From: an uncultured delta proteobacterium
GTDB taxonomy: Bacteria; Desulfobacterota; Binatia; UBA9968
Assembly (NCBI GenBank): GCA_963816145.1
Contig: CAWFJP010000002.1
Coordinates: forward strand, 1-64,000
Length of the DNA: 64,000 nt
Reading direction: 5' to 3'
Both the position numbers and the translations under genes were made by a program. Position 1 is the first letter of the stretch; the number at the start of each line of letters is the position of its first letter. Shown piece after piece: positions 9,403 through 39,045 of the stretch. The notes under the pieces were generated by a model. The model was not told the origin of the DNA. It was given only the letters and a program-made list of their open reading frames with translations, and did no database searches.

Positions 9403-9539
9403 TATCTCGCAAAGACGCAAAGTTCGGACGTGCCGTCATTTCGACCGCAGGGAGAAATCTTTCCCAGATCCCTCACGGTCACTCGGGATGACGGGCATCG
9501 ACCCGTCACCTTTGCGTCTTGGCGCCTTGGCGGGAGATA
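9403..9539. repeat. Composite REP/MITE-like palindromic element, copy 1
   Basis: GCAAAGACGCAAAG / CTTTGCGTCTTGGCGCCTTGGCG arms around a GTCATTTCGACC..GGGAGAAATCT core; reverse complement of 17587-17729; lies between convergent genes. Confidence 0.85.
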
Positions 9540-9552
9540 CTGCGAATTCTTT

Positions 9553-14900: not shown

Positions 14901-15365
14901 CTGTTCCTGTGTGAGGTTGATGTAGGTCGGCAGCGCCGACTGCTGTTCGGCGCGGGCGATGATTTTGACGATCTCGTCGGCTCGGCGCTGCTTCAGCAGC
15001 TCGGCACGGATCGCCGGCAGCAGCGAGGCGATGCGCTGCAATAGCTGCAAGTGCTCGGCTGGGCGCTTGGCCGGAGTGGCGAGCAACAGGACAATATGAA
15101 TTTTGTGGTCGTTAAAGGCGAGGCCGTCCGCTGCAATGCCGAGGATCAATTCCGGTTCGGCGAGGTCGTCGATGCGCAAGTGTGGCACGGCGATGCCTTC
15201 GCCGATGTAGCTGTAACGCTCGTTTTGTTGGTCTGGTGCGTGAGCGTGGAATTGCGCCCCGAACTCGGGAATATGCGAGTGAGCGCTCAACTGGTCGATG
15301 GCAGCGGCAAGCTCGCCCTTGAGCCCGAAGACGATCTTGGCGCTGTCGAGACGCTCGGCGATCAT
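11985..15365 (-). CDS. P-type cation ATPase (P2C Na,K/H,K-like) with fused N-terminal PTS EIIA domain
   Basis: [23 protein letters not shown]; M4 VANVPEGL; M6 VDVGTD; N-terminal IGEGIAVPH...IVLLLATP...HLQLLQRIA. Confidence 0.9.
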   Translation of the reverse strand: MIAERLDSAKIVFGLKGELAAAIDQLSAHSHIPEFGAQFHAHAPDQQNERYSYIGEGIAVPHLRIDDLAEPELILGIAADGLAFNDHKIHIVLLLATPAKRPAEHLQLLQRIASLLPAIRAELLKQRRADEIVKIIARAEQQSALPTYINLTQEQIEFELQTDLINGLSSAEAQSRLSRYGGNTLQRSRREPWQFKLLRNLFSFFAILLWIAALLCFVPGVDLPQLGIAILTVVLVNGLFAFLQEYKSDRALEMLQQLIAQRSTVIRDGNTQEIAAAALVPGDVIVLEEGDLVPADCRLTEAFEVEVDNSSLTGESSPARRYKSDQPVLIAGKFLWIELPNILFAGTSLLRGRARAVIFGTAMSSEIGKIANLTQEIASEQSPLQKQLRATVYAITALAGGLGLAFLFLGWLVAGLTFLEALVFCIGLFVANVPEGLLPTVTLSLAMGVQRMAKRHALVKSLPSVETLGCTTVICCDKTGTLTQNLMMATEIAIDGKKVEVSGVGYRPQGEFVHDGQTLSLEAISHWHTLRRLLDCAFICNNARIEKKDADFHVIGDPTEGALVCLAEKAGLRGTHQRLHLNPFESIRKRMSVVVRPYRQKDAVIYVKGAPVEMLAQCDRIHWGDDILPLSELDRARLLKENDAMASRGLRVLAFAYRDGAELNGAPFTSAGIEKNLVYLGLAALSDPLRPEVAPAIHACHTAGIRVIMVTGDYALTAASIGRQIGLGQDAPLQTFTGAEVSEMDDPRLRGILAQGETIFARVAPEHKLRIVAQLKQMGEIVAVTGDGVNDAPALKKADIGIAMGVRGNDVAKEASRMILTDDNFSSIVAAIEEGRAIFDNIKRFAAYVLNSNPQEMYPYIFWVLFPDIPLAMTVMGVLAVDVGTDLIPAMGLGIEPPEEGIMERPPRRRDDKILSLPFILRAYFVHGSFLALSCYATYYYMGWVLGAWQAGKSFAAMPASPRGLQFAQATPAYLQTLTAYFFPTVTTQIANVLCKRSAKASLFAANFLQPGYRREALDAIAHWRPRQAPAVFEIFAPATAWLARFLERHYIVFNLVSNPLVDLGILFELLLCYFFFYTPLADIYYFAPVPWHVYLFACNGTVVLLVFEEVKKYYRRKGHPLEFLG

Positions 15366-22151: not shown

Positions 22152-22895
22152 ATGAAGAATAAAATCATCCTACTGACTGGTCTCAGCCTGGCGCTGTTAT
22201 TGTGTGGCACTTCGCCTCGCGCGCTGCTCGCCTATGAGGAAATCGTCGTCAAAGATGGAGCGACAATTCGGGGCACCGTGATGGTTGAGGGTAAGCTTGG
22301 GAAGCTCCCGGCGCTGCAGGTGACTAAGTACAAGGAAGTCTGTAAGGACGTGCCCAACGAAAGTCTCGTTGTCGGCCCGGGGCAGGGGTTGCGCTACGCG
22401 GTGATCACCTTGGAAGGAATCGTCAGAGGAAAAGCGGTGGAAAAAGAAACTCTCCACGAGCTTGACAACCTTCACTGCCGATTTATGCCTCACGTCTTAG
22501 CGGCGAGCGTGGGTCAGTTCGTCGTGTTAAAGAATTCCGATCCGATCCTGCACACGGCCCATGCATCCTTTAGCAGCGCCGAACAACCGCAGTTCAATGT
22601 CGGGTTGTATCCTGGGCGGGTTAGCCGCAAACCGTTGATTACCGCCGGTGTCGTCAAGATCCGCTGCGAAGTTCATCCCTGGATGGCCGCGTACATCGTG
22701 GTTACCGAGCATCCCTATCACGCAATATCGGATATCTATGGCGAGTACGAGCTCACTGACGTTCCAGCGGGAGTTTATCAACTGAAGGTGTGGCACGAGA
22801 GTTTAGGGACGCAAGAGAAGCGTCTCGAGGTAAAGCCGGCCGCGACACAAAAGGTAGATTTTAACTTTACCGCGCCGCTGGGGGTGAAAAAATGA
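22152..22895 (+). CDS. Exported cupredoxin-like / carboxypeptidase-regulatory-like domain protein
   Basis: Signal peptide; NSDPILHTAH...CEVHPWM (type-1 Cu-like His/Cys/His/Met). Confidence 0.75.
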   Translation: MKNKIILLTGLSLALLLCGTSPRALLAYEEIVVKDGATIRGTVMVEGKLGKLPALQVTKYKEVCKDVPNESLVVGPGQGLRYAVITLEGIVRGKAVEKETLHELDNLHCRFMPHVLAASVGQFVVLKNSDPILHTAHASFSSAEQPQFNVGLYPGRVSRKPLITAGVVKIRCEVHPWMAAYIVVTEHPYHAISDIYGEYELTDVPAGVYQLKVWHESLGTQEKRLEVKPAATQKVDFNFTAPLGVKK

Positions 22896-23518
22896 AAAGC
22901 TTAACCTCGTGGTTGTTGGTCGCCGTGCTTGTCGGTCTGCCTTCGGTTGCGCGCGCCGCGGAGGCGAGTGGTTTCGGCATCGTCAAGGGGACGATTACCA
23001 TCGCCGGCAAACCGGCCCCTGATGCTGTTGTCTCCATAGAAGGTCTTTCGAAGGAGCAGATCAAAACCCAGATGTCGCACACCAAGCCGCAGAAAAAAAT
23101 CATCGATCAACGCAACCTTAAGTTTCTTCCGACAGTTGCCGCGATTACGGTCGGTGAGACCGTTGATTTTCCAAACAACGACAAGTCCTGGCACAATGTG
23201 TATTCCAAAGGCGGCGCGAACGATTTCGATCTCGGCCTCTACGCCCCAGGTAAGACTCGAAGCAAGAAATTCGACAAGGTTGGCGTTTCACGCATTCTGT
23301 GTAACGCCCACCCGAATATGGAAGCCTTCGTGGTCGTGAAAGATCATCCTTTTTATTCTGCGACCGATAGCCGGGGTAATTACGAGATCAAAAACGTTCC
23401 CTTGGGTAAGGTTCGCGTCGAGGTTTGGTATCCCAATCTCGAAGTTACAAGTGAAACCGTCGAAATTGTCCGCGACGGCGAGGTCTTTGCGCTCAACGTC
23501 GATCTAAAGAATCGCTAG
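22892..23518 (+). CDS. Exported cupredoxin-like / carboxypeptidase-regulatory-like domain protein
   Basis: Signal peptide; FPNND..HNVYS...CNAHPNM; ATGA overlap with the previous gene. Confidence 0.75.
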   Translation: MKSLTSWLLVAVLVGLPSVARAAEASGFGIVKGTITIAGKPAPDAVVSIEGLSKEQIKTQMSHTKPQKKIIDQRNLKFLPTVAAITVGETVDFPNNDKSWHNVYSKGGANDFDLGLYAPGKTRSKKFDKVGVSRILCNAHPNMEAFVVVKDHPFYSATDSRGNYEIKNVPLGKVRVEVWYPNLEVTSETVEIVRDGEVFALNVDLKNR

Positions 23519-23838
23519 TTCATGAAACACCGGCTCAGCAGTGGGGAAACATTTTGCACTAATTCTAGCTGCGCTGTAGAGCGCTTCCACAGAGCGGATC
23601 CTAACTAAAATGAAAAGCCGCAAGATGTTTCCCCCATTTGATAAGACACCCAAAAATCTTATGGCGCCGGCGCCGCATCGGCTTTTAATCAAGTGTATGA
23701 GAGAAAGACAAACTTCCAAGGATTGAAGCCCAAGACAGCAACACCGGTTTGGTAGGGAACTGCCGATGACTTTGACGCTAAAACCCAAAAGCATGAAATT
23801 GACCGCAGTGGAGTCAACGCGGCCGAGGTTGATCCAAA

Positions 23839-24162
23839 ATGATGTTGACTCGTGGCGCTGACTCTCGGAGTGAATCGGCCGCCGGCGGGATTGGCGCCTC
23901 GCGCAAGCCGCCAAATATAACCGTCGCCGAACAGCGAGTGCTCAGCCTCGTCTCCAGAGCCTGGACCAACAAAGAAATCGCGTCGGCATTAGGAATAAGT
24001 CCGGCCACGGTCAAGCGCCACGTAGAAAAAATTCTGACCAAGCTTGGCTTTCGCAATCGGGTTGAAGTTGCGATCTACGGGTTCACTTCTGGCTGTCCGC
24101 ATCGATCGATCTCCGGTTGCGCGCTGCGTCAGTTCATGCAAGATAGCCCAGTCAGTCGATAG
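23839..24162 (+). CDS. LuxR-type HTH-only transcriptional regulator
   Basis: TVAEQRVLSLV...TNKEIASALGISPATVKRHVEKILTKLG..NR. Confidence 0.85.
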   Translation: MMLTRGADSRSESAAGGIGASRKPPNITVAEQRVLSLVSRAWTNKEIASALGISPATVKRHVEKILTKLGFRNRVEVAIYGFTSGCPHRSISGCALRQFMQDSPVSR

Positions 24163-24211
24163 CCATGGGCCGATTGCCCGATGGTTTTGCGTTGCCAAGC
24201 AATGCTATAAA
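24163..24211 (+). promoter_or_regulatory. 22-bp imperfect palindrome plus extended -10 (candidate activator-dependent sigma-70 promoter 1)
   Basis: CCATGGGCC-GATT-GCCCGATGG (24163-24184); 21 nt later TATAAA preceded by CAATGC. Confidence 0.6.
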
Positions 24212-24270
24212 CGAGTCATTCGTTCGGTTTGAGATTCAAACTGCCAAACTAATCGACGCAGGAGAGATCA

Positions 24271-25374
24271 ATGAGCAAAATTCGTTGGTGCGGGATCGTT
24301 TTCGCTAGTTTGCTGTTTTGTCTTTTGGGTTGGAACCCTGCAGAAGCGCAGAATAGCATTCTTCCGAAAGGCTGCGTCGATTGCCATGGCTCGGAGCCGA
24401 AGTTCCCTGTGCGCGGGATCCGCAGCCAATATCAGACCTCCGGCCATCGGACCCTTGGCAATGCCAGTTATGCCAACGCCGATGATTGCCAAGGCTGCCA
24501 CACCAACGAAGGTTTTATCCAGCGCGCCAAGACCGGTACGGTCGATATTAAGAAATTTGTCGCCAATCCTTCTGAGATCGGCTGTTTCACCTGTCATGCG
24601 CCGCATGACAACGGCAACTTCGCGCTGCGCGCGACCAACAAAGTGACACTCGCCAATGGCGCAACGTTCGACAAAGATAAAGGCAACCTATGCGCCAGTT
24701 GTCACCGCGCCCGGCGCATGCCCAAAGACGAAGTCCGCGCCCGCAATATTCCCACTGATAGTTGGGGCGCGCACCATGGTCCCCAGGCGGACATGCTGGC
24801 GGGAACCAACGCCTATGAATTCGCCGGCAAGAAATACTCGTTCTCTGCCCATACGGCGATGCCCAATGCAACTTGCGTCACTTGCCATATGACCTTGCCA
24901 AGTGGCCGTTATTCTCTAGCGCCATCGCTCGGCGGCCATAGCTTTCGGATCGCTGGCGAGGTCCATGAAGAGCATAAAGTAAATACTGCGGGCTGCACGA
25001 CCTCGGGCTGCCATGGCGCCATGGAGCAGGTAAAGGGCACGCACTATTTCGCCAAGGCCGCGGCGCAGGATTACGACGGGGATGGCAAGCTTGAGAGCGC
25101 GCAGGAAGAGGTCCAAGGGTTACTGGAGAAATTCGTCAACGGCAAAGGCAGCGGTATTTTCCAGACGATGAAGGAGCCGATGTACGACGCCAAAGGCAAT
25201 TTCGTCAATACCAAGACGCAGTACCCGGTCGATGCCGTGGCCGCGCTTTATAATTACAAATTTGTTCTCGAAGATCGCAGCAAGGGCGTGCACAATCTTA
25301 CCTATGCCGTGCAGCTCCTGATGGACTCATTGAAGGCACTGGACAAAAATTTTGACGACTCGACGCGTCCTTGA
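24271..25374 (+). CDS. Periplasmic multiheme cytochrome c (5 CxxCH plus one CX4CH)
   Basis: CVDCH, CQGCH, CFTCH, CASCH, CVTCH, CTTSGCH; Sec signal ending AEA; C-terminal SKGVHN..YA helix region reminiscent of the c552/NrfA fold. Confidence 0.88.
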   Translation: MSKIRWCGIVFASLLFCLLGWNPAEAQNSILPKGCVDCHGSEPKFPVRGIRSQYQTSGHRTLGNASYANADDCQGCHTNEGFIQRAKTGTVDIKKFVANPSEIGCFTCHAPHDNGNFALRATNKVTLANGATFDKDKGNLCASCHRARRMPKDEVRARNIPTDSWGAHHGPQADMLAGTNAYEFAGKKYSFSAHTAMPNATCVTCHMTLPSGRYSLAPSLGGHSFRIAGEVHEEHKVNTAGCTTSGCHGAMEQVKGTHYFAKAAAQDYDGDGKLESAQEEVQGLLEKFVNGKGSGIFQTMKEPMYDAKGNFVNTKTQYPVDAVAALYNYKFVLEDRSKGVHNLTYAVQLLMDSLKALDKNFDDSTRP

Positions 25375-25726
25375 CGCCGAGGCCTACGCCTGCGCATCAG
25401 TTGAGGTTGCTTCAGGGATGATCAGCGGCACGCGGATGCACGAGCCGCGGCTTCAGTTATAAGAGCTCTGCCGTAACGGGTTCGGTGCAACAGTCGGTGC
25501 TGGCGTTTCGCTTCAGCCAGGAGCGAAAAATAATAAGGTTGCGTCGGACCCGTTCAGAATTCCCGCATCACCCAACGCCAAATCGTAAAACAATCCCGAC
25601 AGATCCCAGGTTGCGAAATCGCGTCTAAGCGGCGATCTACGACTAGGCCGCAATGGTTGATGCGCCGAGTCGAGTTACGGCTGGGGTTGGCAAAAACTGC
25701 TTGCTGGATGCGGAGCTGCTGTGCGA

Positions 25727-25775
25727 CTGTGGGCCATATGACCCATAGACACGCGCGAAATTTCAATGCTATAAG
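25727..25775 (+). promoter_or_regulatory. 22-bp imperfect palindrome plus extended -10 (candidate activator-dependent sigma-70 promoter 2)
   Basis: CTGTGGGCC-ATAT-GACCCATAG (25727-25748); 21 nt later TATAAG preceded by CAATGC. Confidence 0.6.
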
Positions 25776-25830
25776 CTTTAAAAATTCTGTAGTTGAGATC
25801 AATTTTCTCAGTCTGAGAGATGGGGGCGTC

Positions 25831-26802
25831 ATGAGGCGAATGGTCTTTTTGCTGGCAGCCTGTTTGTTATTGCACGGCTTTTCGCAATTGGCGTTGTCAG
25901 CGGAGCAGGAGGCGCCAAAGTCGGGCCCCGTCGCTGAGGCGCCAAAGTCAGGCCCCGCGACATATGTTGGCAATGAAGTTTGCCAGGCCTGTCACGCTCC
26001 CGCCTTCGAGAAATTTTCCCAGACGCAGATGGGCAAGATTTTTCTCTTCAATGCGCGCAACGAAGCTGAGAAGCGGGCATGCGAAAGCTGTCACGGCCCC
26101 GGCAGCAATCACGTCGCCGCCGGTGGCGGTAGAGGTGTGGGCGGCCTAATCACCTTTCGCAAAAATTCGGGTGAATCCGCCAAGGTCCAAAACGACGCAT
26201 GTCTTGGGTGTCATCAGCGCGGCATTCAGACCTATTGGGCAGCGAGCCCGCATGCGAACCGAGGCCTTTCCTGCGTCAATTGCCATACCCTGATGGAAAA
26301 AACCAGCGGCAAACAGTTGGCCAAGCTTACCGAAGTCACGCCATTCTTTATCAATCGAGCGGAGACCGAAGTATGCGGTCAGTGCCATCTGCAACGTAGA
26401 GCGCAGCTCATGCGCTCGTCGCACATGCCGGTGCGAGAAGGCAAGCTGACCTGCACGAGTTGCCACAACCCGCACGGGACGCCCAATCCGGCCCAGCTCA
26501 AACAAACGAGCGTGAACGAAAACTGCTATACCTGCCACACCGAGCGGCGCGGGCCGTTTCTATACGAACATCCGCCGACGGTTGATAGTTGTACCAACTG
26601 TCACGAGCCGCATGGGACAGTCAATGACCGGCTGCTCAAAGTTACTGATCCTAGAATGTGCACGCAGTGCCATATGATTACCGGGCACCCGGTGACTCCG
26701 CGGGGTAAAAACTCGGTTTTCTTCTTTAATCGGAGCTGCACCAACTGTCATAGCCAGATACATGGTTCCAACCATCCCTCTGGGAGATTCTTTACCCGTT
26801 AA
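25831..26802 (+). CDS. mtrA: DmsE/MtrA/MtoA/PioA-family decaheme cytochrome c
   Basis: Ten CxxCH motifs, RGPFLYEHPP, C-terminal HGSNHPSG; directly followed by an MtrB-like porin. Confidence 0.93.
   Translation: MRRMVFLLAACLLLHGFSQLALSAEQEAPKSGPVAEAPKSGPATYVGNEVCQACHAPAFEKFSQTQMGKIFLFNARNEAEKRACESCHGPGSNHVAAGGGRGVGGLITFRKNSGESAKVQNDACLGCHQRGIQTYWAASPHANRGLSCVNCHTLMEKTSGKQLAKLTEVTPFFINRAETEVCGQCHLQRRAQLMRSSHMPVREGKLTCTSCHNPHGTPNPAQLKQTSVNENCYTCHTERRGPFLYEHPPTVDSCTNCHEPHGTVNDRLLKVTDPRMCTQCHMITGHPVTPRGKNSVFFFNRSCTNCHSQIHGSNHPSGRFFTR
25909..25957 (+). repeat. 27-bp in-frame tandem duplication (EAPKSGP x2)
   Basis: GAGGCGCCAAAGTCGGGCCCCG at 25909 and GAGGCGCCAAAGTCAGGCCCCG at 25936. Confidence 0.9.
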
Positions 26803-26813
26803 GGAGTCGTACG

Positions 26814-29096
26814 ATGGAAAAATCAAGGAGATTTGTTGTCCCAGCCCTTAGCTTTGCGCTGATCATGTTTTTGACGTCCGCTGCCTTGGGACAAATAAAT
26901 ATCGGTGATTATACCGTGAGCGGTTCGGCGGAAGTTGGCGGGCTGCCGAGAACGTTTAGCGGCGACAAAGCGAAGTTTGAAGAATACCGAGATGTCCCAG
27001 AGAGCGTTATCGTTCCTCAGCTGCAACTCATGATCGGCGGCAAGAAGGAGGATTTTTATCTTAACGCTGACGCCGCCAAGGTGGGTCGTAACGACCAGAA
27101 CTATATACTTCGCTTTGGCCGATATGGGCTTCTCGATGTGGAATTTGAGTGGGATCAAATCCCGCATCGTTTTAGCGAGGGGGTTGCCAAGACGCCGTAT
27201 ATTTCCTCTAACAACGGCGGGACGCTTACTCTTCCCTCCAGGCCAAACCCATTAACAGCCCCAAACAATTGCGCAAACATCACATCAGTCTGCGGATGGG
27301 TCAATAGCACCGCTCAGCCTATCGATCTATCGCTTTACAACGGCATTGCTCGGGTGAATGTTAAATATACGCCCACCCCCGGATGGACCTTTACCGGGGG
27401 CTACTGGTCAAATCACAACGTTGGCCAGCGGGCCTTCGGCGCCCTCTTTGGCCCCAGTCCCGGTTCCTACAATATTAGCGAGCTAATCGAACCGATAGAT
27501 TACCAAACCAATAATGTCGAACTGGGAGGCGAATACGCAGGAAACGGCTGGACGCTGGCGCTAAAATACAATGGCTCTTATTTTCACAACAGCGTCAGCA
27601 CTCTGATATGGGATAATCCCATTCATACGGCGCCTGGTGGCGTATGTAGGGACTCGGCAACCTACAACAATTCTCTCGGAACTGGCCCTTGCCGCGGACG
27701 CATGGATTTATATCCCAGCAATCAGGCCCATACAATTTCTCTCACGGGGACCGCGCAGCTTCCTCTCAAGACCCGTTTTTTGGGAACGATGTCCTACGGT
27801 TGGCGATTGCAAGACGATTCCTTTCTGCCGTTTACGATCAATAGCGCAATCACTCAGCCGTCAATTTCTCGAAACAGTCTCGATGGCAATGTGCAGCCGC
27901 TGATGATCAACGCCACCCTGGTGAACAATGCCATAGACCGCCTGAACCTTAAGGCCTATTACCGTTTTTACAATCTCGACAATAACAGTAAGAGCGTGGC
28001 ATTTAACCAAGGTATCATTGTCAACGACCAGGCGCCTGCGGGCTGTCCCCCGGCTTGTCCTGACGCTGGTACGCAAAGCATCCCCTACCAGTATTCAACC
28101 CAGAATTTAGGCATGGAGGCCGGCTACGATTTCACCCGCTGGATTTCCACCAAGTTTGTCTACAATTGGCAGCGAAGGCACACGGACAACCAGGATGTCT
28201 TGACCTCGGATGAATTCACCATCGGCCCTACGGTCGATATCAAGCCGACCAATTGGGTCTTGTTCAGGGCGGCTTACAAACACTCTTGGCGTAACGCGCC
28301 GGATTACAACAATAACCGGGAAGAGGTGGTCGATATCGCCAATATTTCGCGCAAGTTTTACCTGGCCAAGCGTGACCGCGACAAGGTCAGCTTGTACTCG
28401 GAAATTTCACCATGGGAACGGGTCAGTTTCCATGCCGGCTTTGATTTCACCGGCGAAACATATCTGGATAGCACATTAGGAACTCAAAACGATTTTAACT
28501 ATTCTCCTTCTGTGGGGGTTCTCTATACGCCGGCGGATTGGGTCAAATTATTTGCCAACTACAATTTTGACCTCTACAGCTGGAAGTTGGATGCCATGCA
28601 GCGCTCGAGCACGGCGCAAGATCCCAACGATCCCAACCCACCGAGCAATTGTAACGCCGACTGCGTGCGGCGGCTTTGGACCAGCCGCGGCAAAGATAAG
28701 TCCCATACATTCAGCATCGGCAGCGATCTGGATATCATTCGCAATCTTTTAGGATTTCGCATTCAGTACACATTCTCGCAGGGTCTGAGCCAAGTGCACG
28801 CCAGCGGTGCGGGCTGTACGGGATGCACCGCCGCCACCGATTATCCCAATATTACCAACACCTGGCAGGAGGTGTTGGCGCGTTTTGAATATCAATTGCA
28901 CAAGAATATTGCGCTAAATTTTGGCTACTATTTCAATCGCTACAAGCAAAAAGACTACGGCGTGGATATCATGAAACCGTGGATGGGCGATGTCGACACC
29001 GGCGTCAACGTCCAGCGCTCGATCTTCTTGGGCGATAAAAACAAGGGTAATTATACCGCTAATGTTGGTTTTCTGACGGTTAAGCTCAAATTCTGA
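26814..29096 (+). CDS. mtrB: MtrB/MtoB/PioB-family outer-membrane beta-barrel porin
   Basis: AKFEEYRD, EPIDYQT, LIWDNP and PSNQAH motifs; alternating beta pattern; terminal Phe. Confidence 0.92.
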   Translation: MEKSRRFVVPALSFALIMFLTSAALGQINIGDYTVSGSAEVGGLPRTFSGDKAKFEEYRDVPESVIVPQLQLMIGGKKEDFYLNADAAKVGRNDQNYILRFGRYGLLDVEFEWDQIPHRFSEGVAKTPYISSNNGGTLTLPSRPNPLTAPNNCANITSVCGWVNSTAQPIDLSLYNGIARVNVKYTPTPGWTFTGGYWSNHNVGQRAFGALFGPSPGSYNISELIEPIDYQTNNVELGGEYAGNGWTLALKYNGSYFHNSVSTLIWDNPIHTAPGGVCRDSATYNNSLGTGPCRGRMDLYPSNQAHTISLTGTAQLPLKTRFLGTMSYGWRLQDDSFLPFTINSAITQPSISRNSLDGNVQPLMINATLVNNAIDRLNLKAYYRFYNLDNNSKSVAFNQGIIVNDQAPAGCPPACPDAGTQSIPYQYSTQNLGMEAGYDFTRWISTKFVYNWQRRHTDNQDVLTSDEFTIGPTVDIKPTNWVLFRAAYKHSWRNAPDYNNNREEVVDIANISRKFYLAKRDRDKVSLYSEISPWERVSFHAGFDFTGETYLDSTLGTQNDFNYSPSVGVLYTPADWVKLFANYNFDLYSWKLDAMQRSSTAQDPNDPNPPSNCNADCVRRLWTSRGKDKSHTFSIGSDLDIIRNLLGFRIQYTFSQGLSQVHASGAGCTGCTAATDYPNITNTWQEVLARFEYQLHKNIALNFGYYFNRYKQKDYGVDIMKPWMGDVDTGVNVQRSIFLGDKNKGNYTANVGFLTVKLKF

Positions 29097-29162
29097 ACGC
29101 TGCGCTTGTTCTAAGGCGAGTATCGACGTTGCGGCGGGCGAGCTTTTTTTTTGTGGTCGCCG

Positions 29163-30425
29163 ATGCATAAAAGTTTGTTTTTTTTAGCGATCTTACTTGT
29201 CGTGCTGCTCTCTGGCGCAACCGCCCATCTGACTGCTCAAACCAAAGACGATTCCTGCGCGACATGCCACTTGGCGCTTGGGATTGAAAAATTGACCAAA
29301 CCTGCCGAATTGTACAAAGCGGATATCCATGCCGCCAAGGGCTTTGGTTGCGCAGCCTGTCATGGTGGCGATGCGAGCGTTATGGGTTTGGAGGGCATGG
29401 ACCGCAAGAAAGGCTATATTGGCAAGCCCGCCGGGCAACAAGTGGTCGAAGTGTGCGGCAAGTGCCATGCTGACGGCGCATTCATGCGCCAGTACAATCC
29501 GAGTTTGCGCGTCGACCAAGTTGCGGAATATTACACCTCCGTCCACGGCAAACGGCTCAAAGAGCTGAAAGATCCTAAAGTGGCAACCTGCGCGAGTTGC
29601 CATAAGCCCCATGCAATACGACCGGCCAACGACGCACGCTCTTCGGTTCATCCGTTGCACGTCGCCGAGACTTGCGGTTCATGTCACGCCAATAAAGACT
29701 ATATGGCGTCGTACAAGATTCCGACCGACCAGTTCGAGCAGTATAAGAAAAGTGTGCACTGGAAGATGATCTCGACTAAAGGCGATCTTTCGGCACCGAC
29801 CTGTAACGATTGTCATGGCAATCATGGTGCCTCGCCGCCGGGAGTATCTTCGGTGGTGAACGTTTGCGGGCAGTGCCATGTGGTTAACTCGGAACTCTTC
29901 AACAAGAGCGGGCATAGCAAGATCTTCGCGCAGATGGGCATTCCCGGTTGCGCCAGCTGTCACAGCAATCACGCCATCCAGGACGCCGGCGATGCCATGC
30001 TCGGCGCCGGTGACAAATCCGCTTGCGCGACTTGTCATCCGCCAACTTCTTCGGGCGCCACTCTCGCCGCCAGTATGCTCGCTTCGATTGAGCGTTTGAA
30101 GAACGATTATGAGAGAACCAACACGCTGCTCGCCACTGCCGAACACGCCGGCATGGAAGTCAGCCAGCCGTTGTTTGAGCTGAATGACGCGAAGACCGCG
30201 TTGATTAAAGCGCGCGCGGCGATCCACGGATTTGACCAGGCGATTCTCGACAAAGAAGTTGCGCCTGGGCTAAAAGTCGCCGAAAAGGCGCATAGCCGAG
30301 CCGTGCGGGCACTTGAGGAGTTGCAGTTTCGGCGCAAGGGCTTAGCGATTTCGGCGCTAATTATCTTTGCGCTGGTCGTGGGTCTGATTCTCAAGATCCG
30401 CCAGATGGAGCGAAGAAGGAAATAG
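29163..30425 (+). CDS. C-terminally membrane-anchored nonaheme cytochrome c
   Basis: Nine CxxCH motifs, signal peptide, helical stalk, TM helix followed by basic tail. Confidence 0.9.
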   Translation: MHKSLFFLAILLVVLLSGATAHLTAQTKDDSCATCHLALGIEKLTKPAELYKADIHAAKGFGCAACHGGDASVMGLEGMDRKKGYIGKPAGQQVVEVCGKCHADGAFMRQYNPSLRVDQVAEYYTSVHGKRLKELKDPKVATCASCHKPHAIRPANDARSSVHPLHVAETCGSCHANKDYMASYKIPTDQFEQYKKSVHWKMISTKGDLSAPTCNDCHGNHGASPPGVSSVVNVCGQCHVVNSELFNKSGHSKIFAQMGIPGCASCHSNHAIQDAGDAMLGAGDKSACATCHPPTSSGATLAASMLASIERLKNDYERTNTLLATAEHAGMEVSQPLFELNDAKTALIKARAAIHGFDQAILDKEVAPGLKVAEKAHSRAVRALEELQFRRKGLAISALIIFALVVGLILKIRQMERRRK

Positions 30426-30446
30426 CCGTAAAGGAAATGTTCTAAC

Positions 30447-30908
30447 ATGGCCAACGACGAAACATCCTTAGCCGTCGATCACGGACGGAGAAACTGGCTC
30501 AACTGGTTCTTGAGCACCACGGCGGGGGCGTTTTTGGTTTCGGTCACCTATCCATTGAGCCGCTATCTGGTTCCACCCGACGTCGAGGAATCGACCGCGC
30601 ATACCGTAACGTTGGCGCTCAAGCCCCAAGAGGTAAAACCGAACAGCGGGCAGATTTTCCGTTTCGGCAGCCAGGCGGGGATTTTAGTTAAAGACTCCAA
30701 TGGGGAGCTGAAAGCGTTTTCCGCGGTGTGCACGCACCTGGCGTGTATCGTGCAATATCGTTCGGACATAAACCAGATCTGGTGTGCTTGTCATAACGGC
30801 CATTTCGATCTCAACGGCAGAAATGTCGAAGGTCCACCGCCCAAGCCATTGGAACAGTTTGTCGTCAATGTCCGGGCCGAGCAAATTGTCGTGAGCAAGA
30901 GAGGCTAA
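30447..30908 (+). CDS. petC: Rieske [2Fe-2S] subunit of a Rieske/cyt b complex
   Basis: Tat-like GRRNWL; CTHLAC and CACHNG boxes; GPPPKPL. Confidence 0.93.
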
Positions 30909-30912
30909 TCGG

Positions 30913-32013
30913 ATGGAGCACGACAGCCCAAAGCGCGGCAAACTTTATCTCTGGCTCGATGAACGGGTCGGGTTGAGCGACTTCGCCAAGCTCGCCAAAA
31001 AGAAAGAAGTGCCGCTGCATCGTCATACGTTCTGGTATTATTTCGGTGGCATGACGCTGTTTCTGTTCGCGATCCAGGTTGGCACCGGTATTCTGCTTTT
31101 GCTCTATTATCGTCCCAGCGCCGGCGAGGCTTTCGAGTCGATCCAGTTCATCATGACCGAGGTGCAGTTCGGTTGGCTCGTCCGCTCGATTCATTCCTGG
31201 TCCGCCAATCTGATGATCTTTGCCATGTTCGTTCACCTGTTCAGCGCGCTTCTGCTTAATGCCTACCGGCGCCCGCGCGAAATGACTTGGCTCTCGGGCG
31301 GTGGCTTGCTCGGTCTGAGTCTGGCGTTTGGCTTTACCGGTTACCTCTTGCCATGGAACGAGTTGGCTTTTTTTGCCACCCGGGTCGGCACTGAAATCCC
31401 CGGAGTTATACCGGTGGTCGGGCCATTTGTGCGCCGCTTGCTGCGCGGCGGCAATGAGGTCACCGGGGCGACCTTGACGAGATTTTACGGCGTCCATGTC
31501 GCCATCCTGCCGGCGCTCGTGACCGTTGTCCTTGGGCTCCATCTTTTCCTGGTGCAGAAACACGGCATGAGCCGGCCACCGAGCGTGGAAGGCAGCGGCG
31601 AGGGCAAGCGATCGATGCCGTTTTTCCCGAATTTCTTTTTGCGTGACCTGGTAGGATGGCTCTGTGCCCTCGGCGTGCTCGCAGCTTTGGCGGCTTATTT
31701 TCCAGCCGAGTTGGGTAAAAAGGCAGACCCTTTCCAACCGGCGCCCGTCGGCATCAAGCCTGAATGGTATTTCATGGCTATGTTTCAAACACTGAAACTG
31801 CTGCCGGCGCATATTCTCGGCATCGAGGGTGAGCTTTTGGGTGTTCTCGGATTCGGTATCATCGGGCTAGTCTTGGTGGCCATGCCATTTCTTGACCGGA
31901 GGGCGGCACCCGTTAAAGCGTCGAGCCGCTTGGCTGTCGGGTTCGGGCTGCTATTGATTGTTTATTCGGTGGTTCTAACCTATCTTGGCTATACGATGAG
32001 TGCGACGAAATAA
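30913..32013 (+). CDS. petB: Cytochrome b (unsplit b6+subunit IV-like) of a Rieske/cyt b complex
   Basis: [28 protein letters not shown]...LHL and PEWY. Confidence 0.95.
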
Positions 32014-32173
32014 CTTGCGCGGTGTCAAAACATAGCCGGGACCGGAAGATATCGGCAATGTATTTGAATTGTTTCGCGGTTGACGGCGTCCAATTCGCAG
32101 ACGGCGTGAGCTCGAATCGGTGCCAACGCGACTGATAAATTTTGTTGATGAAAAGGGAAAGGAAGGAATCGTA

Positions 32174-32506
32174 ATGAGATCTAAAATTGGGCTAACAATC
32201 ATAGGTTTAGGGATTGCGGCTGGGCTGGCTTCGGGGGCCATCGCGGGTGAAGCTGACAGCGGCAAAGCGATTTACGAAAAATCTTGCATGGGGTGCCACG
32301 GTGCGGATGGTAAAGGTAATGAGAAGATGGCGAAAATTCCAGGCTTCGAAAAAGGCCTAAATATCGTCGGTGCCGACGTCAAAAAGAAGTCTGACGAGCA
32401 ATTGCTCAAACTCATCGCCGAAGGCGCCGGGAAAATGCCCCCTTCCAAGCTTACCAAAGAGGAGCAAAAACAGGCCTTGGCTTATGCTCGAACTTTGGCT
32501 AAATAA
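32174..32506 (+). CDS. Periplasmic class I monoheme cytochrome c
   Basis: Signal peptide, CMGCH, distal GKMP. Confidence 0.9.
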   Translation: MRSKIGLTIIGLGIAAGLASGAIAGEADSGKAIYEKSCMGCHGADGKGNEKMAKIPGFEKGLNIVGADVKKKSDEQLLKLIAEGAGKMPPSKLTKEEQKQALAYARTLAK

Positions 32507-32582
32507 CTCGTTTTCACGACGAGCGATTGTCACACCCAGTGGGGACGACGCCGCGCGGACTTAGTGTCTGTCGGCGTTGACC

Positions 32583-32774
32583 TCATGCGGTGACAAGAGC
32601 GATGAGATAGATCGCTATGCCAGCCAAAACGAGAACGCCGCCGAGAATGATGAAAAGTAAAAAGCTCGTTGGATGAGACCAATTGAGAGATATCCCTTCA
32701 ACCGCCAGACCGGCGATTAACAAGTAAGCTGCTGTCTTCAGTTTGCGCTGCAAGCGCGATTCGTTCTCGGTCAT
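32583..32774 (-). CDS. Small 2-TM membrane protein coupled to the NapC-like gene
   Basis: Two hydrophobic helices; ATGA overlap at 32771-32774. Confidence 0.65.
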   Translation of the reverse strand: MTENESRLQRKLKTAAYLLIAGLAVEGISLNWSHPTSFLLFIILGGVLVLAGIAIYLIALVTA

Positions 32775-33379
32775 GCCCCCGGCCCTTTCCATTTCTTTGT
32801 TTTATCGATGTTTGCCACGTCGTGAATCTTTGTGTGGCAGGTCAAGCAAGACATATCGTTGGACGTTAGCTGTTCCTTCATTTCTTTGTGCGGCGAGCTG
32901 TCTTCATAGGATCGCCCGTTGGCATGGCAATGCAAGCATTCCCGGTTCTTGAACGGTTCGTAAAGCGCCAGTTTTGCCGGCGTGGGCTTGAAGTAATACA
33001 CATAAAGATGCCTCAAACCGCGCAGCTTGGCATTGACGTCGCCGAACATCGTGTAGTCGGTATGGCAGGTGAAACACGCGTGGTCTTTGGGTATACGGTT
33101 GTTTTGGAAATGGGCAGCAGGAACATACTTCGGGTCATCAATGTAAAGGCTCTGGCCATGGGCCTGCATGACGTGGCAAGACAAGCAGAACTGCGTTGAC
33201 GTCGAGTTCTCTAAATGAATCGAAGTGCCCAAGACCGTCGCCACGATAGGCAGGATAAAGAACGCGATGAAGGCGACAATCTTGCCGCCTTGTGCCGCCG
33301 TGATGGAAGGCCGCAGCAGCAATAGGCCGATCAGAATGATACTTAAAGTGATGACGGTAGCGACTGCGTATGTTGCCAA
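32771..33379 (-). CDS. NapC/NirT/CymA-family membrane tetraheme cytochrome c
   Basis: N-terminal TM helices; FCLSCHVM, CFTCH, CLHCH, CLTCH. Confidence 0.88.
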   Translation of the reverse strand: MATYAVATVITLSIILIGLLLLRPSITAAQGGKIVAFIAFFILPIVATVLGTSIHLENSTSTQFCLSCHVMQAHGQSLYIDDPKYVPAAHFQNNRIPKDHACFTCHTDYTMFGDVNAKLRGLRHLYVYYFKPTPAKLALYEPFKNRECLHCHANGRSYEDSSPHKEMKEQLTSNDMSCLTCHTKIHDVANIDKTKKWKGPGA

Positions 33380-33773: not shown

Positions 33774-36316
33774 TCACCGACGACTTCGTGCGAACTTGAC
33801 GATCTCAAACCAGAGAGCGCTAAAGATTCCTGCGCCCAGACAAATTGCCAACTCACTGGCGGGCAAGCCAGAGAAACGGAAAACCTCGCGCAGATAGGGC
33901 ACGTAAAGTACCGCCGCAAGAAAGATGAGCCCGCCGCTGACGACCCACCAAAGAGCCGGGTTGGGTGTGCGCAAAGTGGCGAATGCATGCCGCGACATAG
34001 AGCGGTTCGCGAAGATCAAGCCAAGCATGCCTAGCACTAAAGTGACGAAGCTCGCGGCGCGTGCCGCTGCTTCATTGTGGCCTCGGTAAAGCGCAAACCC
34101 CAGAACCGCCAATACGCCGAGCAAAACAATCGATCCCTGGAGCAGGCTCGAGCAGATCTTTTTAGCGCCGAAAAGCGGCTCCTGCGGATCCCGCGGCGGC
34201 CGGTTCATGACATCCGATTCTTCGGGCTCGGCTTCAAAGGCGATCGAACAGGCGGGATCGATAATCAGTTCAAGAAAGACGATGTGCACAGGTGAAAGCA
34301 CGAGCGGCCAGTCAAGAATCAATGGCACCAACGCCAGTCCCGCGATCGGCACATGGATGGAGAAAATAAACGCCAGGGCTTTCTGCAGATTATCAAAGAT
34401 GCGTCGGCCCGAGCGAATAGCATCAACGATGGTGGCGAAGTCGTCGTCGAGGATAACCAGTGAGGCTGCCTCGCGCGCCACGTCCGTGCCGCGCCCGCCC
34501 ATGGCGATGCCGATATGCGCGGCCTTCAGTGCCGGCGCGTCGTTGACGCCGTCGCCGGTCATCGCGACGATCTCGCCGTTGGCTTTGAACGCCTCGCACC
34601 AGTTTCAATTTTTGTTCGGGTAGAACCCGGGCGAAGACCTGCGTGACACCGATGCGGCGGCGCAGTTCGCCTTCAGCCATGCGTTCGATGTCGGCGCCGA
34701 TAAGAATTTCGCTCCCCGAATCCAGGCCGATCTTACGCGCGATGGCCTGCGCGGTGGACGGATAGTCGCCGGTAATCATGACGACTTTGATGCCGGCCTG
34801 GTTACACGCCTTGATTGCGGCCGGAACCGCAGGCCGCACGGGATCGGATAGGCCGACGAGTCCGAGAAACTTGAAATCAAAATCATGCTGGCTGGCTGGC
34901 CAGCTGCTGCCGGTAAAAGCTCCGCGCGCAACACCAAGAACCCGCAGGCCGTCCGCCGCTATGGTATCGACCTGTGCCGCGAGCTCGGCGCGTTGTTTGG
35001 GATCGAAGTGACAAAGATCGGCAACCGCTTCCGGCGCGCCCTTGGTGGCGATGGCGTACTCTTCGCTGCTTGATAATTGCCAAACATGGGAGAGTGCCAG
35101 CAGGTCCGGTGCGAGAGAGTACTCGTGCGCCAGGGTCCAATCTTTAAATCTCGCGCCGTGATCGAGATATCGGTCACCGACTTCCTTGAAAGCTTTTTCC
35201 ATCGGGTCGAATGGATCGGTCTCGCTGGCGAGAACCGAGAATCGCACCAGCTCGTGAAACTTCTGAGGCAATGTTTCGTCCTGGGTTGTGTCCACCTCAT
35301 AGAAATCCCCGGCCGGCGAAAAGTTTGCCCACCGACATGCGGTTAAGGGTCAGCGTGCCGGTCTTGTCGACACACAAAACGGTTGCCGAACCGAGAGTTT
35401 CAATGGCCGGCATGCGCCGGGTGAGAACCCGTTTCTGCGACATGCGCCAAGCGCCGAGCGCGAGAAAAACCGTGAGCACGACGGGAATTTCTTCAGGGAG
35501 GAGAGCCATGGCGAGCGCGATGCCGACCAGGAATCCTTGGAGCCAATTGCCGCGCGTTAAACCATAGAGAATCACCGCCAAAGCGCAGAGAGAGAGCCCC
35601 ACAGCGGCTAAGTTACGGATGAGCCCGGCGGATTTCTTTTGCAGGAAGGTCTCGTCGGTTTCCAGCGTTTGCAGCGCCTTGCCGATTTTGCCAATTTCGG
35701 TTCCCGTGCCGGTCTTGAGCACTCTGGCGACGCCACGGCCCTGGACGAGCATGGTGCCGGAATAGACGAAGGGCAAGTCATCTCCGCCCGGGCGAGCGAT
35801 TTCTTGCTTGCCGTTCCAATTCGCCTTGCGCACCGGCACAGATTCCCCGGTGAGCAAGGATTCGTCCGCTGCCAGATCGTTGCAGGACAAGATGACGGCG
35901 TCAGCGGGCACTCGGTCACCTTCGGTGAGCAGCAAAATATCGTCGGGCACCACTTCCCGCCCGGCAATGCGTATCTGTTCGCCGTCGCGGATGACGAGCG
36001 CGCGTGGACTGGAAAAATCTCGCAGTGCCTCCAGCGCTCGCTCGGTTTTTCGCTCTTGAAAAATCGTGATCACCATGATGACCAAGATCGACGCAGCGAG
36101 AATCAGGGCTTCCCGCAGGTCGCCGAGAGTCAAGTAGAGAATGCTGGCGGCGATGAGCAGCGCAAACATCGGCTCGCGGGCAACGCTAAGGGCAATGGCG
36201 AAGGTGCCGCGGCGGTTGGAGGAAGGAAGTTCGTTGTAACCGTGGGCCCGAAGTCGCTCCTCGACTTCTTGGCTCGAAAGTCCACTGGGCGGCGTATCGT
36301 TAGACTGGGTATTCAT
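33774..36316 (-). pseudogene. P2-type cation-transporting ATPase split by two +1 frameshifts (pseudogene or sequence error)
   Basis: Consecutive fragments carry TGES/PEEIP/DKTGT, KGAPE/TGD and GDGVNDAP; one extra base near 35311 and one near 34596. Confidence 0.8.
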
Positions 36317-36348
36317 CGTTGTAAGCGCCGGGTGCGCGCTAATCCGGT

Positions 36349-39045
36349 TTACGTCAATTCCCCGAACCAGCCGCGCCGTTCCATCCACTTGGCCAGTTCC
36401 AACACCGGTAGGATCGTCAATGCTCCACTCAAGACAACGGCCCAGTCTATCATCGGCAAGCTGAAGGTGCCGAAGGGTTGTTGGAGAATTGGCGTATAAA
36501 TGACGACAACCAGTAGGGCGATTTCCCAAGCGACTGCGCGGTTCAACCACTTATTGGCGAACGGCCGTATGAGCACCGAATGGCGCTCGGAGCGAAAACA
36601 ATAGGCTTTGAGAAACTGGATGAGCACCAGCGACACAAAGGTCATGGTCATCGCCTCATTGACATCGGACCGTGCAGATAATGCCCAAGTGAATAGCCCG
36701 ATGTTGATGAGGGCCGACCATAGACCGCCGACGACCATCAATGTGACGACTGGCCGGGTGAAGATACCGGTTCGTGAGTCGCGCGGGGGCCGTTGCATCA
36801 GATCGCGCTCAGGCGGATCTACGGCGAGGGCCAATGCCGGCAGTCCATCGGTGGCCAGGTTGACGTAGAGGATTTGCACGGCACTGAGCGGTAACGGCAG
36901 GCCAAAGACGGCGGCGCCAATCATGAGGCCGATCTCGCCGATGTTGGACGAAATCAGAAACATCAAATATTTCTTGATATTGTCAAAGACGCCTCGGCCT
37001 TCTTCGACGGCGGCAACGATGGAAGCAAAGTTGTCGTCGATGAGCGTCATCGCCGCGGCCTCCTTGCTCACGTCGGTGCCGGTGATTCCCATGGCGATGC
37101 CGATGTCGGCTTTCTTGAGCGCGGGCGCGTCGTTAACGCCGTCGCCGGTCATGGCGACGATGTGCCGATTGCCTTGCAGAGCGGTGACCACGCGAAGTTT
37201 GTCGGCCGGCGAGACCCGGGCGTATACCTCGATGTCTTCCACTTGGGCGGCCAAATCAACGTCGCTGATCGCCGCCAATTCAGCGCCAGTGATTGCACGG
37301 CCATTTCTGAGCACGCCAAGTTCCCGGGCGATGGACTGCGCCGTGAGCGGATGATCGCCGGTGATCATTACCGGTTTGATGCCCGCTTGGCCGCATATCC
37401 GGATCGAGGTCTGAGCCTCCGGGCGTGGTGGATCGATCATGCCGGCCAAACCGAGGAAGATCATCTCCTGTTCCGCTTCTTGTGGCGTCGCATTGGGTCT
37501 ATAGGCAATCGCCAATACCCGAAGCGCTTCACTCGCCATTTCCTGTGAAGCATCTAGGATGAGCTTCTGTGTCGTGCCATCCAAGCTAGTTTCACCAATC
37601 TCGGTCAACTGTTTCGTGCAGGAGGCGAGGAGGATCTCAGGCGCGCCTTTGGCGTAGGCGATGATGCCACCGTTGGCCTTGTGCAAGGTGGTCATGCGTT
37701 TGCTTTCGGAAGTGAACGGGATTTCATGCACGCGGGGAAAGCGTTTTTCGAGTGCTGTTTTGTCGAGGCCTGCCTTCGCCGCCGCTACCACCAGCGCGCC
37801 CTCGGTGGGATCGCCTTTGATCTGCCAACCTCGCGCTGAAGCTGCGCCCGAGTCGCCGCCGTTATCGATGGGCAGCAGATCAGCATCGGATGCGAGCGCC
37901 GCGGCGGTCAGTAAAGTCATGAGGGGGCTGGAAGGTTCGATCGTGGCACCATTCCGTGAGAAGTTGCCGTGGGGCTCATAGCCGGTGCCGGTGACCTCGA
38001 GCATTTGCCCGGCGACAAATATCTTGCGCACCGTCATCTCATCTTTCGTCAAAGTCCCGGTCTTATCCGAGCAGATGACCGACACGCTTCCCAAAGTTTC
38101 GACTGCGGGCAGCCGGCGGACTAAGGCGTTGCGTTTGACCATTCGTTGGACGCCGATGGCGAGGGAGATCGTGACCACCGCCGGAAGGGCCTCGGGGACC
38201 ACGGCAACCGCGAGGGCAATTCCGAAAATGAACATTTCGAGCAGCGGCTGACCACGCAGTACTGCGAGGATGACGATCATCGCCACCACCGCTAGCGCAG
38301 CTTGGGCGAGTATGCGCCCGACTTTGTCCAAGTTGATTTGCAGCGGTGTCCTGCCACTCTGGACGGTTTCGAGTAGCTGGGCGATTTTGCCGAACTCGGT
38401 GCGCGTGCCGGTGGCAATCACTACCGCACGGCCGCGCCCGTAAGTGATGGCGGTGCCCGCATGAACCATGTTGCGCCGGTCGCCCACCGGCAGGTCATCC
38501 TTCAAGATCGCGTCAGTTTGTTTTTCAATTGGCAGCGATTCGCCGGTGAGCGGTGCTTCATCCGCTCGTAGATTCATGGCAACGAGCACCCGTGCGTCGG
38601 CGGGAACTTTGTTACCGGTATTCAAAATAACAATGTCTCCCGGCACGAGATTGCGTGCCGGGATATCGGTTTCGTTGCCATCTCGGATTACGGTCGCATT
38701 GGGCGCGGCCATCTGGCGCAGCGCGTCGATCGCGCGTTCGGCGCGGTATTCTTGATAAAATCCTAGCAGGACAGCGAAAAGAACGATGACGGCGATGGCA
38801 ATCGCCTCAAGGGTGTGGCCGAGGAATGCCGAGAGCGTCACAGCGACGAGCAGGATAATGACCAGAACGTTTTTGAACTGCTCCAGGAAAATCGTCCACG
38901 GCGAGACTCGATGCCCGGCCTCAATTTCATTGGGGCCGTACTCCAGCAATCGGCGCTGCGATTCAGCTGCGCTGAGGCCGCGAGTCGCCTCGCTGCCTAG
39001 CTGGCGGAGCAGGTCGTCGATTGGCAATTGGTACCACTGAGTCAT
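36349..39045 (-). CDS. P2A-type (Ca2+-like) cation-transporting ATPase
   Basis: [40 protein letters not shown]. Confidence 0.93.

Follow-up and report, generated by a model that had tools for sequence, protein, structure and literature searches.

An accessory MtrAB island joined to a nonaheme-Rieske-cytochrome b module in an uncultured member of the Binatia, with a possible role in extracellular electron uptake

Clusters in which the genes of an outer membrane conduit stand beside those of a Rieske/cytochrome b pair have been described before. The RBG-1 organism of the Zixibacteria, as described by Castelle et al. 2013, encodes MtrA, MtrB, multiheme cytochromes and PetAB in one cluster, and because extracellular cytochromes were lacking the authors argued for probable Fe(II) oxidation (PMC3903129). 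The extHIJKLMNOPQS cluster of Geobacter sulfurreducens is described as encoding a porin-like protein, 12-heme and 10-heme cytochromes, a Rieske protein and a cytochrome b (PMC5877670), and the Sideroxydans MtoAB-MtoD-CymA and Rhodopseudomonas PioABC systems are reported to combine a decaheme and a barrel, without MtrC, with a small periplasmic carrier (PMC10654088). Here we describe a cluster of eleven genes, at positions 22152-33379 of a 64,000-nucleotide stretch of DNA (the window: positions 1 to 64,000 of contig CAWFJP010000002.1, assembly GCA_963816145.1) from an uncultured delta proteobacterium placed by GTDB in the Binatia, in which genes for an MtrA-type decaheme and an MtrB-type barrel are followed directly by those for a membrane-anchored nonaheme cytochrome, a Rieske protein and a cytochrome b. 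Conduit and trio together form an accessory island in the genus. From the parts present and their co-inheritance, the MtrAB conduit is probably functionally coupled to the nonaheme-Rieske-cytochrome b complex, and the role in extracellular electron transfer that we find most likely, with chances just short of even, is electron uptake, for example from Fe(II).

Since the Mtr-PetAB cluster of RBG-1 is already published, the architecture itself is not new. Judged by that description, the two clusters share MtrAB, multiheme cytochromes, PetAB and the lack of an extracellular cytochrome; they belong to different phyla, and the passages describing the RBG-1 cluster make no mention of cupredoxins, a LuxR regulator or a NapC-like gene (PMC3903129). 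The Geobacter ext cluster is analogous: a gene for a 47-kDa multiheme protein lies beside the Rieske gene, as in the window, whereas its porin ExtI is described as no relative of MtrB and its cytochrome b is split between ExtP and ExtQ (PMC5877670). The likeness to the Mto and Pio systems is one of layout and extends to a quinone module of NapC/CymA type, but in the window the nonaheme, Rieske and cytochrome b genes stand between the gene for the barrel and the NapC-like one, and the carriers include cupredoxins where those systems are reported to use MtoD or a high-potential iron-sulfur protein (PMC10654088). The rus/petI system of Acidithiobacillus ferrooxidans follows the same logic, with an outer membrane cytochrome and a blue copper protein as the branch point to an oxidase or to a bc complex working in reverse; there, however, the outer membrane part is Cyc2, cytochrome c1 is of the normal kind and the organism is an acidophilic autotroph (PMC10654088), whereas no RuBisCO was found in the present genome. 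A literature search on Binatota cytochromes and extracellular electron transfer found no paper.

The decaheme gene (25828, the likely start, to 26802, plus strand) encodes a predicted periplasmic protein of the MtrA/MtoA/DmsE family with ten CxxCH motifs, which scores 245 bits against the DmsE/MtrA family model TIGR03508 (cut-off 192) and in a sequence search matches Shewanella MtrA (6R2Q chain A) at E 8e-57. The adjoining gene (26814-29096, plus strand) encodes a 760-residue outer membrane barrel of the MtrB/PioB family, with 339 bits to PF11854 (cut-off 23), 299 bits to TIGR03509 (cut-off 240) and a match to MtrB (6R2Q chain B) at E 3e-21; it is the only MtrB/PioB gene in the genome. By sequence, therefore, homologues of two of the three components of Shewanella MtrCAB are present. 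The locus differs from that system in its inner membrane partner, which is not CymA alone, and in having no MtrC, in the cluster or in the genome. The preliminary description had noted that an MtrC/OmcA lipoprotein is missing, and this holds for the whole genome, 99.5% complete, in which TIGR03507 found no match. As the model that scores best on the decaheme is that of the DmsE family, an alternative is that MtrAB feeds an extracellular terminal reductase encoded elsewhere, for example for dimethyl sulfoxide or iodate. This is highly improbable, given that the 38 flanking window open reading frames scanned include no molybdopterin reductase gene and that the genome has only one MtrB; moreover the molybdopterin-like gene that some genus mates carry on the island is of the Qrc/ACIII type, beside an NrfD-like membrane subunit, and is not DmsA.

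The nonaheme gene (29151-30425, plus strand) is listed with a product of 424 residues, and identical database entries start four residues later, giving a protein of 420 residues with a likely start at 29163. The protein carries nine CxxCH motifs, a signal-like N-terminus and one C-terminal transmembrane segment followed by a basic tail, which is the topology of cytochrome c1. All nine CxxCH motifs are invariant when 27 sequences from several phyla are aligned, and eight further histidines, one methionine and an anchor motif, RR..GL...KIR, are invariant or nearly so, which makes the eight histidines and the methionine candidates for the distal heme ligands. An AlphaFold2 model (mean predicted local distance difference test, pLDDT, 86; predicted template modelling score, pTM, 0.73) places three long helices, at residues 297-328, 334-356 and 359-419, after the heme core, and since the last of them enters the membrane the heme domain would stand on a stalk. 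A sequence search of PDB chains gave no significant match, and Foldseek with the model gave none at E <= 1e-3, the best being hydroxylamine oxidoreductase (HAO; 6T5E, E 2.5e-3, template modelling score on the query, TMq, 0.39). The VIA-align matches include HAO (6M0P; Z 10.0, 276 residues), an octaheme nitrite reductase (Z 9.3) and MtrA (Z 7.3), standing among many generic helical-bundle matches to the stalk; the resemblance of the modelled protein to the HAO/NrfA scaffold may be described as loose.

A relative is found within the genus, in a protein of CbcL architecture with a cytochrome-b561/FdnI-like membrane domain; its multiheme domain and the heme domain of the nonaheme share 30% identity (E 3e-25). 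The periplasmic domain of Geobacter CbcL is reported to carry nine bis-His hemes, so that both proteins have a nine-heme periplasmic c-type domain tied to a quinol-oxidizing membrane part; in CbcL this domain is fused to a b-type membrane domain, whereas here it has a single transmembrane anchor and accompanies a Rieske/cytochrome b pair (PMC13591261). The nonaheme itself does not classify as a CbcL-type bc cytochrome, having that single C-terminal segment and no fused diheme b-type domain.

Next come the genes for the Rieske 2Fe-2S subunit (30447-30908, plus strand; N-terminal anchor, 49 bits to PF00355, and a match to the PetC transmembrane model) and for an unsplit cytochrome b of 366 residues (30913-32013, plus strand; 170 bits to PF00033 and 44 bits to PF00032). 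The Rieske boxes read CTHLAC...CACH, and C95, H97, C100, C113, C115 and H116 are invariant in the 27 sequences, so that the predicted cluster ligands and disulfide cysteines are all present. The N-terminal two thirds of cytochrome b are b6-like (208 bits to 1Q90_B) and the C-terminal third resembles subunit IV. Its H94, H108, H195 and H210 and the motif P283-E284-W285-Y286 (PEWY) are likewise invariant in 27 sequences, and the four histidine ligands of hemes bL and bH and the Qo motif are thus intact. Assignment to the b6f or 'green clade' type fails on the unsplit cytochrome b and on a tyrosine at the position of Cys35 of 1Q90_B, the heme ci position; assignment to the ExtP equivalog (NF040969) fails on score, with 205.9 bits against a cut-off of 290. 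The complex is no canonical cytochrome bc1 either. As the preliminary description had it, the cluster has no c1 gene, and PF02167, the model for that subunit, is without a match both in the cluster cytochromes and in the whole genome. For quinone biosynthesis, MqnA and the Ubi hydroxylases matched in the genome only below the cut-offs.

That the nonaheme stands in for cytochrome c1, a further proposal of the preliminary description, gains plausibility when the family is followed across phyla. A scan of species-representative genomes gave at least 587 stretches matching the nonaheme, and 80 loci were analysed. Near-full nonaheme, Rieske and cytochrome b genes lie side by side in 64 of these, most of the others being cut by contig ends. 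The order is usually nonaheme-Rieske-cytochrome b, and Rieske-cytochrome b-nonaheme in the Blastocatellia/Pyrinomonadaceae. Record titles name Gemmatimonadota, Acidobacteriota, Rokubacteria/NC10, Candidatus Binatia, 'delta proteobacteria' and others. In the protein database the nonaheme family comprises more than 7,000 clusters. Names, where given, go no further than 'multiheme c-type cytochrome' or the like, and the closest clusters with a name come from Candidatus Binatia. This adjacency, the conserved anchor and a genome without c1 suggest that the nonaheme plausibly replaces cytochrome c1 as a subunit of the complex. Multiheme acceptors of Rieske proteins have been considered earlier, both by Dibrova et al. 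2013 (cited in PMC5317091) and by Baymann et al. with their 'A1/A2' groups (PMC3509893).

The link between trio and barrel also recurs. An MtrB-type barrel lies near the trio in 22 of the 80 loci. Five of these (L003, L007, L014, L016 and L042) have a recognisable MtrB in the flank; in the other 17, all from Blastocatellia/Pyrinomonadaceae, an MtrA-like decaheme (234 bits to TIGR03508 in L074) and a protein of about 750 residues are encoded directly upstream of Rieske-cytochrome b-nonaheme. This protein (L074:5839-8091 and 17 further open reading frames in the 17 loci) is always encoded between the decaheme and the trio. BLASTP gave no match between the 751-residue Blastocatellia protein and MtrB, and the protein has no match in Pfam or NCBIfam; only the profile-profile comparison brought out the relation, hhalign of the family against an MtrB alignment giving a probability of 96.3% and E 1.6e-9 over 626 columns, by which the family is a predicted distant homologue of MtrB/PioB. 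On one Binatia contig a 488-residue protein with a heme-binding domain like that of ethylbenzene dehydrogenase (EB_dh, 163 bits) is encoded between MtrB and the nonaheme (L042:2458-3921).

Within the genus the conduit and the trio are an accessory island. Thirty genus mates were surveyed, including the unpublished G005, which has neither gene. Seven have both the nonaheme and MtrB, two the nonaheme only (G002, 84% complete, and G046, 96%), one MtrB only (G044, 99%) and 20 neither, so that the nonaheme occurs in nine genomes, in one of them merely as a contig-end fragment, and MtrB in eight. Neither gene is present in any of 16 genomes belonging to other families of the order. MtrB and the nonaheme are immediate neighbours in the window (G000), G017, G019 and G042; in G012, G014 and G023 they share a contig and strand at a distance of 9-12 kb. 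The core in the genus is LuxR-MtrA-MtrB, preceded by a pair of cupredoxin genes where enough upstream sequence is available, and joined to it are variable quinone modules: nonaheme-Rieske-cytochrome b, NapC-like, Qrc/ACIII-like, and genes of CbcL-like and ImcH-like architecture. The preliminary description had recognized two alternative entry points to the quinone pool in this one cluster, and the genus separates them: G044 has MtrAB with a NapC-like gene and no nonaheme, and G042 has MtrAB with nonaheme, Rieske and cytochrome b.

A larger variant of the island is seen in G014 (L003, contig C5, 1-16747) and in G046 (L101). In L003 the order is MtrB, monoheme c, a Qrc/ACIII-like module (5-heme, molybdopterin-like, FeS and NrfD-like), two four-domain cytochromes c, nonaheme, Rieske and cytochrome b, after which come a CbcL-like gene (11 CxxCH and a b561-like part) and an ImcH-like gene (12 CxxCH, three transmembrane segments). 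Missing from the genome studied here are homologues of the Qrc-like membrane subunit, of the ImcH-like gene and of the part of the CbcL-like gene that encodes the b-type membrane domain.

The window complex is not the ordinary complex III of these bacteria. A second Rieske/cytochrome b complex is encoded on contig C1 (272000-290000; L098, locus 5101-10852, minus strand), with a Rieske protein, a split cytochrome b (256 and 255 residues), an 898-residue cytochrome with eight CxxCH motifs and c7-like and class I parts, and a g1-like cupredoxin/CarboxypepD_reg protein. This split-cytochrome-b complex occurs in 22 of 24 genus mates (again counting G005) and in 14 of 16 other relatives, at 90-100% identity, and is the housekeeping complex III of the order. 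Its cytochrome b is 93-100% identical in 21 of the 22 genus mates that have it, the 22nd having a fragment, whereas on the island identities between genus mates are 73-85% for the nonaheme, 72-82% for MtrA and 50-59% for MtrB; the last figure suggests that the barrel either evolves much faster or was exchanged. A third, partial cytochrome b match, with an in-frame TGA, lies on contig C24 (109134-109427).

The remaining genes of the cluster supply small carriers, a regulator and the second quinone module. At its upstream end, g1 (22152-22895, plus strand) and g2 (22892-23518, plus strand), which overlap by four nucleotides, encode cupredoxin-like proteins with signal-like N-termini and C-terminal CarboxypepD_reg (Ig-like) domains. 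Read from the translations, both have the pattern H...C-x2-H-x2-M (CEVHPWM in g1, CNAHPNM in g2), which would supply the His, Cys, His, Met ligand set of a type-1 cupredoxin. Only g2 exceeds the Pfam Copper-bind cut-off (25.4 against 21.2 bits). The two are paralogues (31% over 152 residues), and five more g1 paralogues are present in the genome. The regulator (23839-24162, plus strand) is a LuxR/GerE-type helix-turn-helix protein of 107 residues, with 51 bits to PF00196 and no receiver domain. All seven genus mates with upstream sequence have LuxR upstream of MtrA (G012, G014, G017, G019, G023, G042 and G044), and all four with enough of it (G012, G017, G019 and G042) have g1-g2 upstream of LuxR-MtrAB.

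Between LuxR and the decaheme, g4 (24271-25374, plus strand) encodes a secreted multiheme cytochrome of no named family, with five CxxCH motifs and one CX4CH. No significant match was found among PDB chains by sequence search, and a search of the ESM Atlas gave generic c7/c3 multiheme clusters only. The protein is kept in G019, at 87%, and because it is absent beside MtrA in G012, G017, G023 and G042 it is not a core part of the system. Downstream of cytochrome b lies the gene for a monoheme class I cytochrome c (32120-32506, plus strand; matches to PF13442 and PF00034), which is found in the same place in G017, G019 and G046 and is a candidate periplasmic shuttle.

The last gene (32771-33379, minus strand) is convergent with the others. 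With four CxxCH motifs, two predicted N-terminal transmembrane segments as anchor and 40.7 bits to PF03264 (cut-off 24.1), its product, a quinol dehydrogenase-like tetraheme protein, has the features expected of the NapC/NirT/CymA family, and it falls below the cut-off of every NCBIfam equivalog model. In G044 the NapC-like gene and then a monoheme c follow directly after MtrAB, which is the classical Mto-like layout.

Taken together, the open reading frames, family scans and motif counts confirm the eleven genes as previously listed, with 29 CxxCH and one CX4CH motifs. The genes from mtrA through cytochrome b are all on one strand, with gaps of 11 (MtrA-MtrB), 54 (MtrB-nonaheme), 21 (nonaheme-Rieske) and 4 nucleotides (Rieske-cytochrome b), followed by 106 nucleotides between cytochrome b and monoheme c. 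Scans for consensus promoters (seven sites against 7.6 expected) and terminators (17 against 16.1) were at chance level, and the finding of no terminator in the four gaps from mtrA to cytochrome b lends weak support to an operon. In the whole genome only six open reading frames have four or more CxxCH motifs, and four of them are inside the cluster.

From these parts a route for electrons can be proposed. A two-part MtrAB conduit, with the decaheme inside the barrel and no surface cytochrome, would cross the outer membrane, and small periplasmic carriers, namely the two cupredoxins, the monoheme c and in some strains the 5+1-heme cytochrome, would bridge the distance to the inner membrane. There the electrons would meet two quinone modules, the first a Q-cycle-type Rieske/cytochrome b complex in which c1 is replaced by the membrane-anchored nonaheme on its helical stalk, and the second the NapC/CymA-like tetraheme. 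MtrA would be the point of entry for electrons donated outside the cell, for example by Fe(II); a downhill branch could lead through the cupredoxins to the two heme-copper oxidases encoded in the genome, and a quinone branch through the nonaheme to Rieske/cytochrome b working in reverse, or through the NapC-like protein, with the monoheme c, the cupredoxins or both coupling MtrAB to the complex. The preliminary description held that direction cannot be read from sequence, and we agree; the protein contacts, the roles of the carriers and the direction of flow are what we infer from the parts, as is any account of the conduit as complete, or of the system as bidirectional or energy-conserving. 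We lean to uptake because there is no surface cytochrome, multihemes are few, the cupredoxins are conserved together with MtrAB and heme-copper oxidases are present. The carriers reported for known oxidizers, rusticyanin and PioC among them, have high potentials (PMC10654088).

A number of observations weigh against this reading of the island, some bearing on the coupling and others on the direction. As to the first, the trio looks like a general, ordinary variant of complex III. No barrel lies near it in 58 of the 80 loci. In a quick, midpoint-rooted tree of the nonaheme with 82 rows, all 38 rows of the Gemmatimonadota-dominated half lack a nearby barrel. The commonest gene upstream of the nonaheme is that of a four-domain class I cytochrome c, of a kind typical of aerobic chains (38 of the 80 loci; 34 of the 69 with at least 1,300 nucleotides upstream). 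The trio could on such grounds act as an additional complex III, supplying the oxidases by way of the monoheme c or the cupredoxins, with MtrAB merely travelling on the same island. The occurrence of a g1-like cupredoxin beside the housekeeping complex on contig C1 fits such an arrangement, as do G046, where the trio was found without MtrB, and G044, where MtrAB-NapC was found without the nonaheme. The conserved linkage that the preliminary description had named as a check is thus only partly there: MtrAB and the trio are linked in the 22 loci described above, and within the genus each half is also met alone.

We nevertheless regard independent action of the two halves as distinctly unlikely. 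In the other half of the tree a barrel is nearby in 25 of 44 rows, several of the barrel-less Blastocatellia rows being short contigs, and barrel and trio recur there in three separate clades (Binatia-like, NC10/Rokubacteria/Acidoferrum and Blastocatellia) with differing gene orders. Presence and absence are concordant in 27 of the 30 genus mates, though these are kin, so that the counts are not independent and no statistics were drawn from them. The genome also lacks any homologue of the usual four-domain cytochrome c, so that some other partner is required for the nonaheme here, which makes its coupling to MtrAB more likely.

As to direction, the main rival is an outward, energy-conserving respiration, in which a Q cycle in Rieske/cytochrome b would oxidize menaquinol and pass electrons through the nonaheme and a shuttle to MtrA and on to extracellular acceptors, soluble or high-potential ones such as Mn(IV), chelated Fe(III) or humic quinones, with the NapC-like protein as a non-electrogenic bypass. 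Forward quinol oxidation is the normal direction of Rieske/cytochrome b complexes, and the four histidine ligands and the PEWY motif of the Qo site would serve it. Box II of the Rieske protein reads CACHNGHF, without the Ser and Tyr whose hydrogen bonds raise the potential in Rieske proteins of the ubiquinol and plastoquinol type, and this suggests a low-potential, menaquinol-type cluster such as would fit a forward menaquinol oxidase. No RuBisCO was found in the genome, which leaves the need for reverse flow unclear.

Comparison with Geobacter points the same way. The genus mates add CbcL-like and ImcH-like architecture genes to the island, and in Geobacter both CbcL and ImcH are reported to serve outward transfer (PMC13591261); the 30% identity of the nonaheme heme domain to that of the CbcL-architecture protein adds to this, and the ext cluster likewise joins a porin, multiheme cytochromes and a Rieske/cytochrome b pair (PMC5877670). 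Against the outward reading stand the lack of any MtrC/OmcA-family surface cytochrome in the genome and its poverty in multihemes. The co-conserved carriers, moreover, are cupredoxins. As a class these have potentials above those reported for MtrA-type hemes, and transfer from cupredoxin to MtrA would be uphill. With both sides considered, outward respiration seems rather unlikely.

Traces of the stretch in sequencing libraries bear on the island's occurrence and, faintly, on its expression. The stretch was found in 14 soil and wetland DNA runs from 13 studies. In four metatranscriptome libraries, contigs of 150-360 nucleotides, many with two differences or fewer, fall on the g1/g2 junction, MtrA, MtrB, Rieske, cytochrome b and monoheme c, the last being covered in all four. 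These contigs are a hint of expression; they show neither strand nor level, and carry-over of DNA could account for them. None of the pieces listed falls in the body of the nonaheme or bridges mtrB and the nonaheme, the contigs being too short to show absence.

Elsewhere in the window, a P-type cation ATPase is spread over three consecutive open reading frames (33774-36550, minus strand) that hold the N-terminus with the E1-E2 domain, the hydrolase domain and the C-terminal domain. This may be a frameshifted pseudogene or an assembly error, and it adjoins an intact 898-residue paralogue (36349-39045). A further P-type cation ATPase of 1126 residues carries an N-terminal PTS EIIA-2 domain (11985-15365, minus strand), and an open reading frame of 442 residues (60085-61413, plus strand) combines a weak match to cytochrome bd subunit I with a C-terminal class I cytochrome c, as in a bd-like/cytochrome c fusion.

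The value of the cluster lies in comparative detail and in a concrete set of proteins, and not in a new kind of system. What is new is how large and how conserved the nonaheme family is, that a divergent MtrB family accompanies the trio in Blastocatellia, that conduit and trio are accessory and island-like in the genus, and that MtrAB takes the place of the usual cytochrome c partner. At stake is how the step between conduit and quinone pool works and whether it conserves energy, above all outside Shewanella and Geobacter; here a Rieske/cytochrome b pair with a nine-heme subunit travels repeatedly with MtrAB-type conduits in abundant uncultured phyla of soils and wetlands. We tentatively entertain, as possible though less than probable, the further proposal that such conduits have, in the nonaheme-Rieske-cytochrome b complex, a dedicated site of coupling to quinones that is capable of a Q cycle. 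The complex would have been acquired as one mobile island and adopted separately in Binatia-like bacteria, Blastocatellia and NC10/Acidoferrum, the stalked nonaheme reaching across the periplasm to MtrA directly or through monoheme c or cupredoxins. If this is true, extracellular electron exchange in these bacteria would be proton-motive, energy-conserving when outward or driven by the proton motive force when inward, unlike exchange by the non-electrogenic CymA route.

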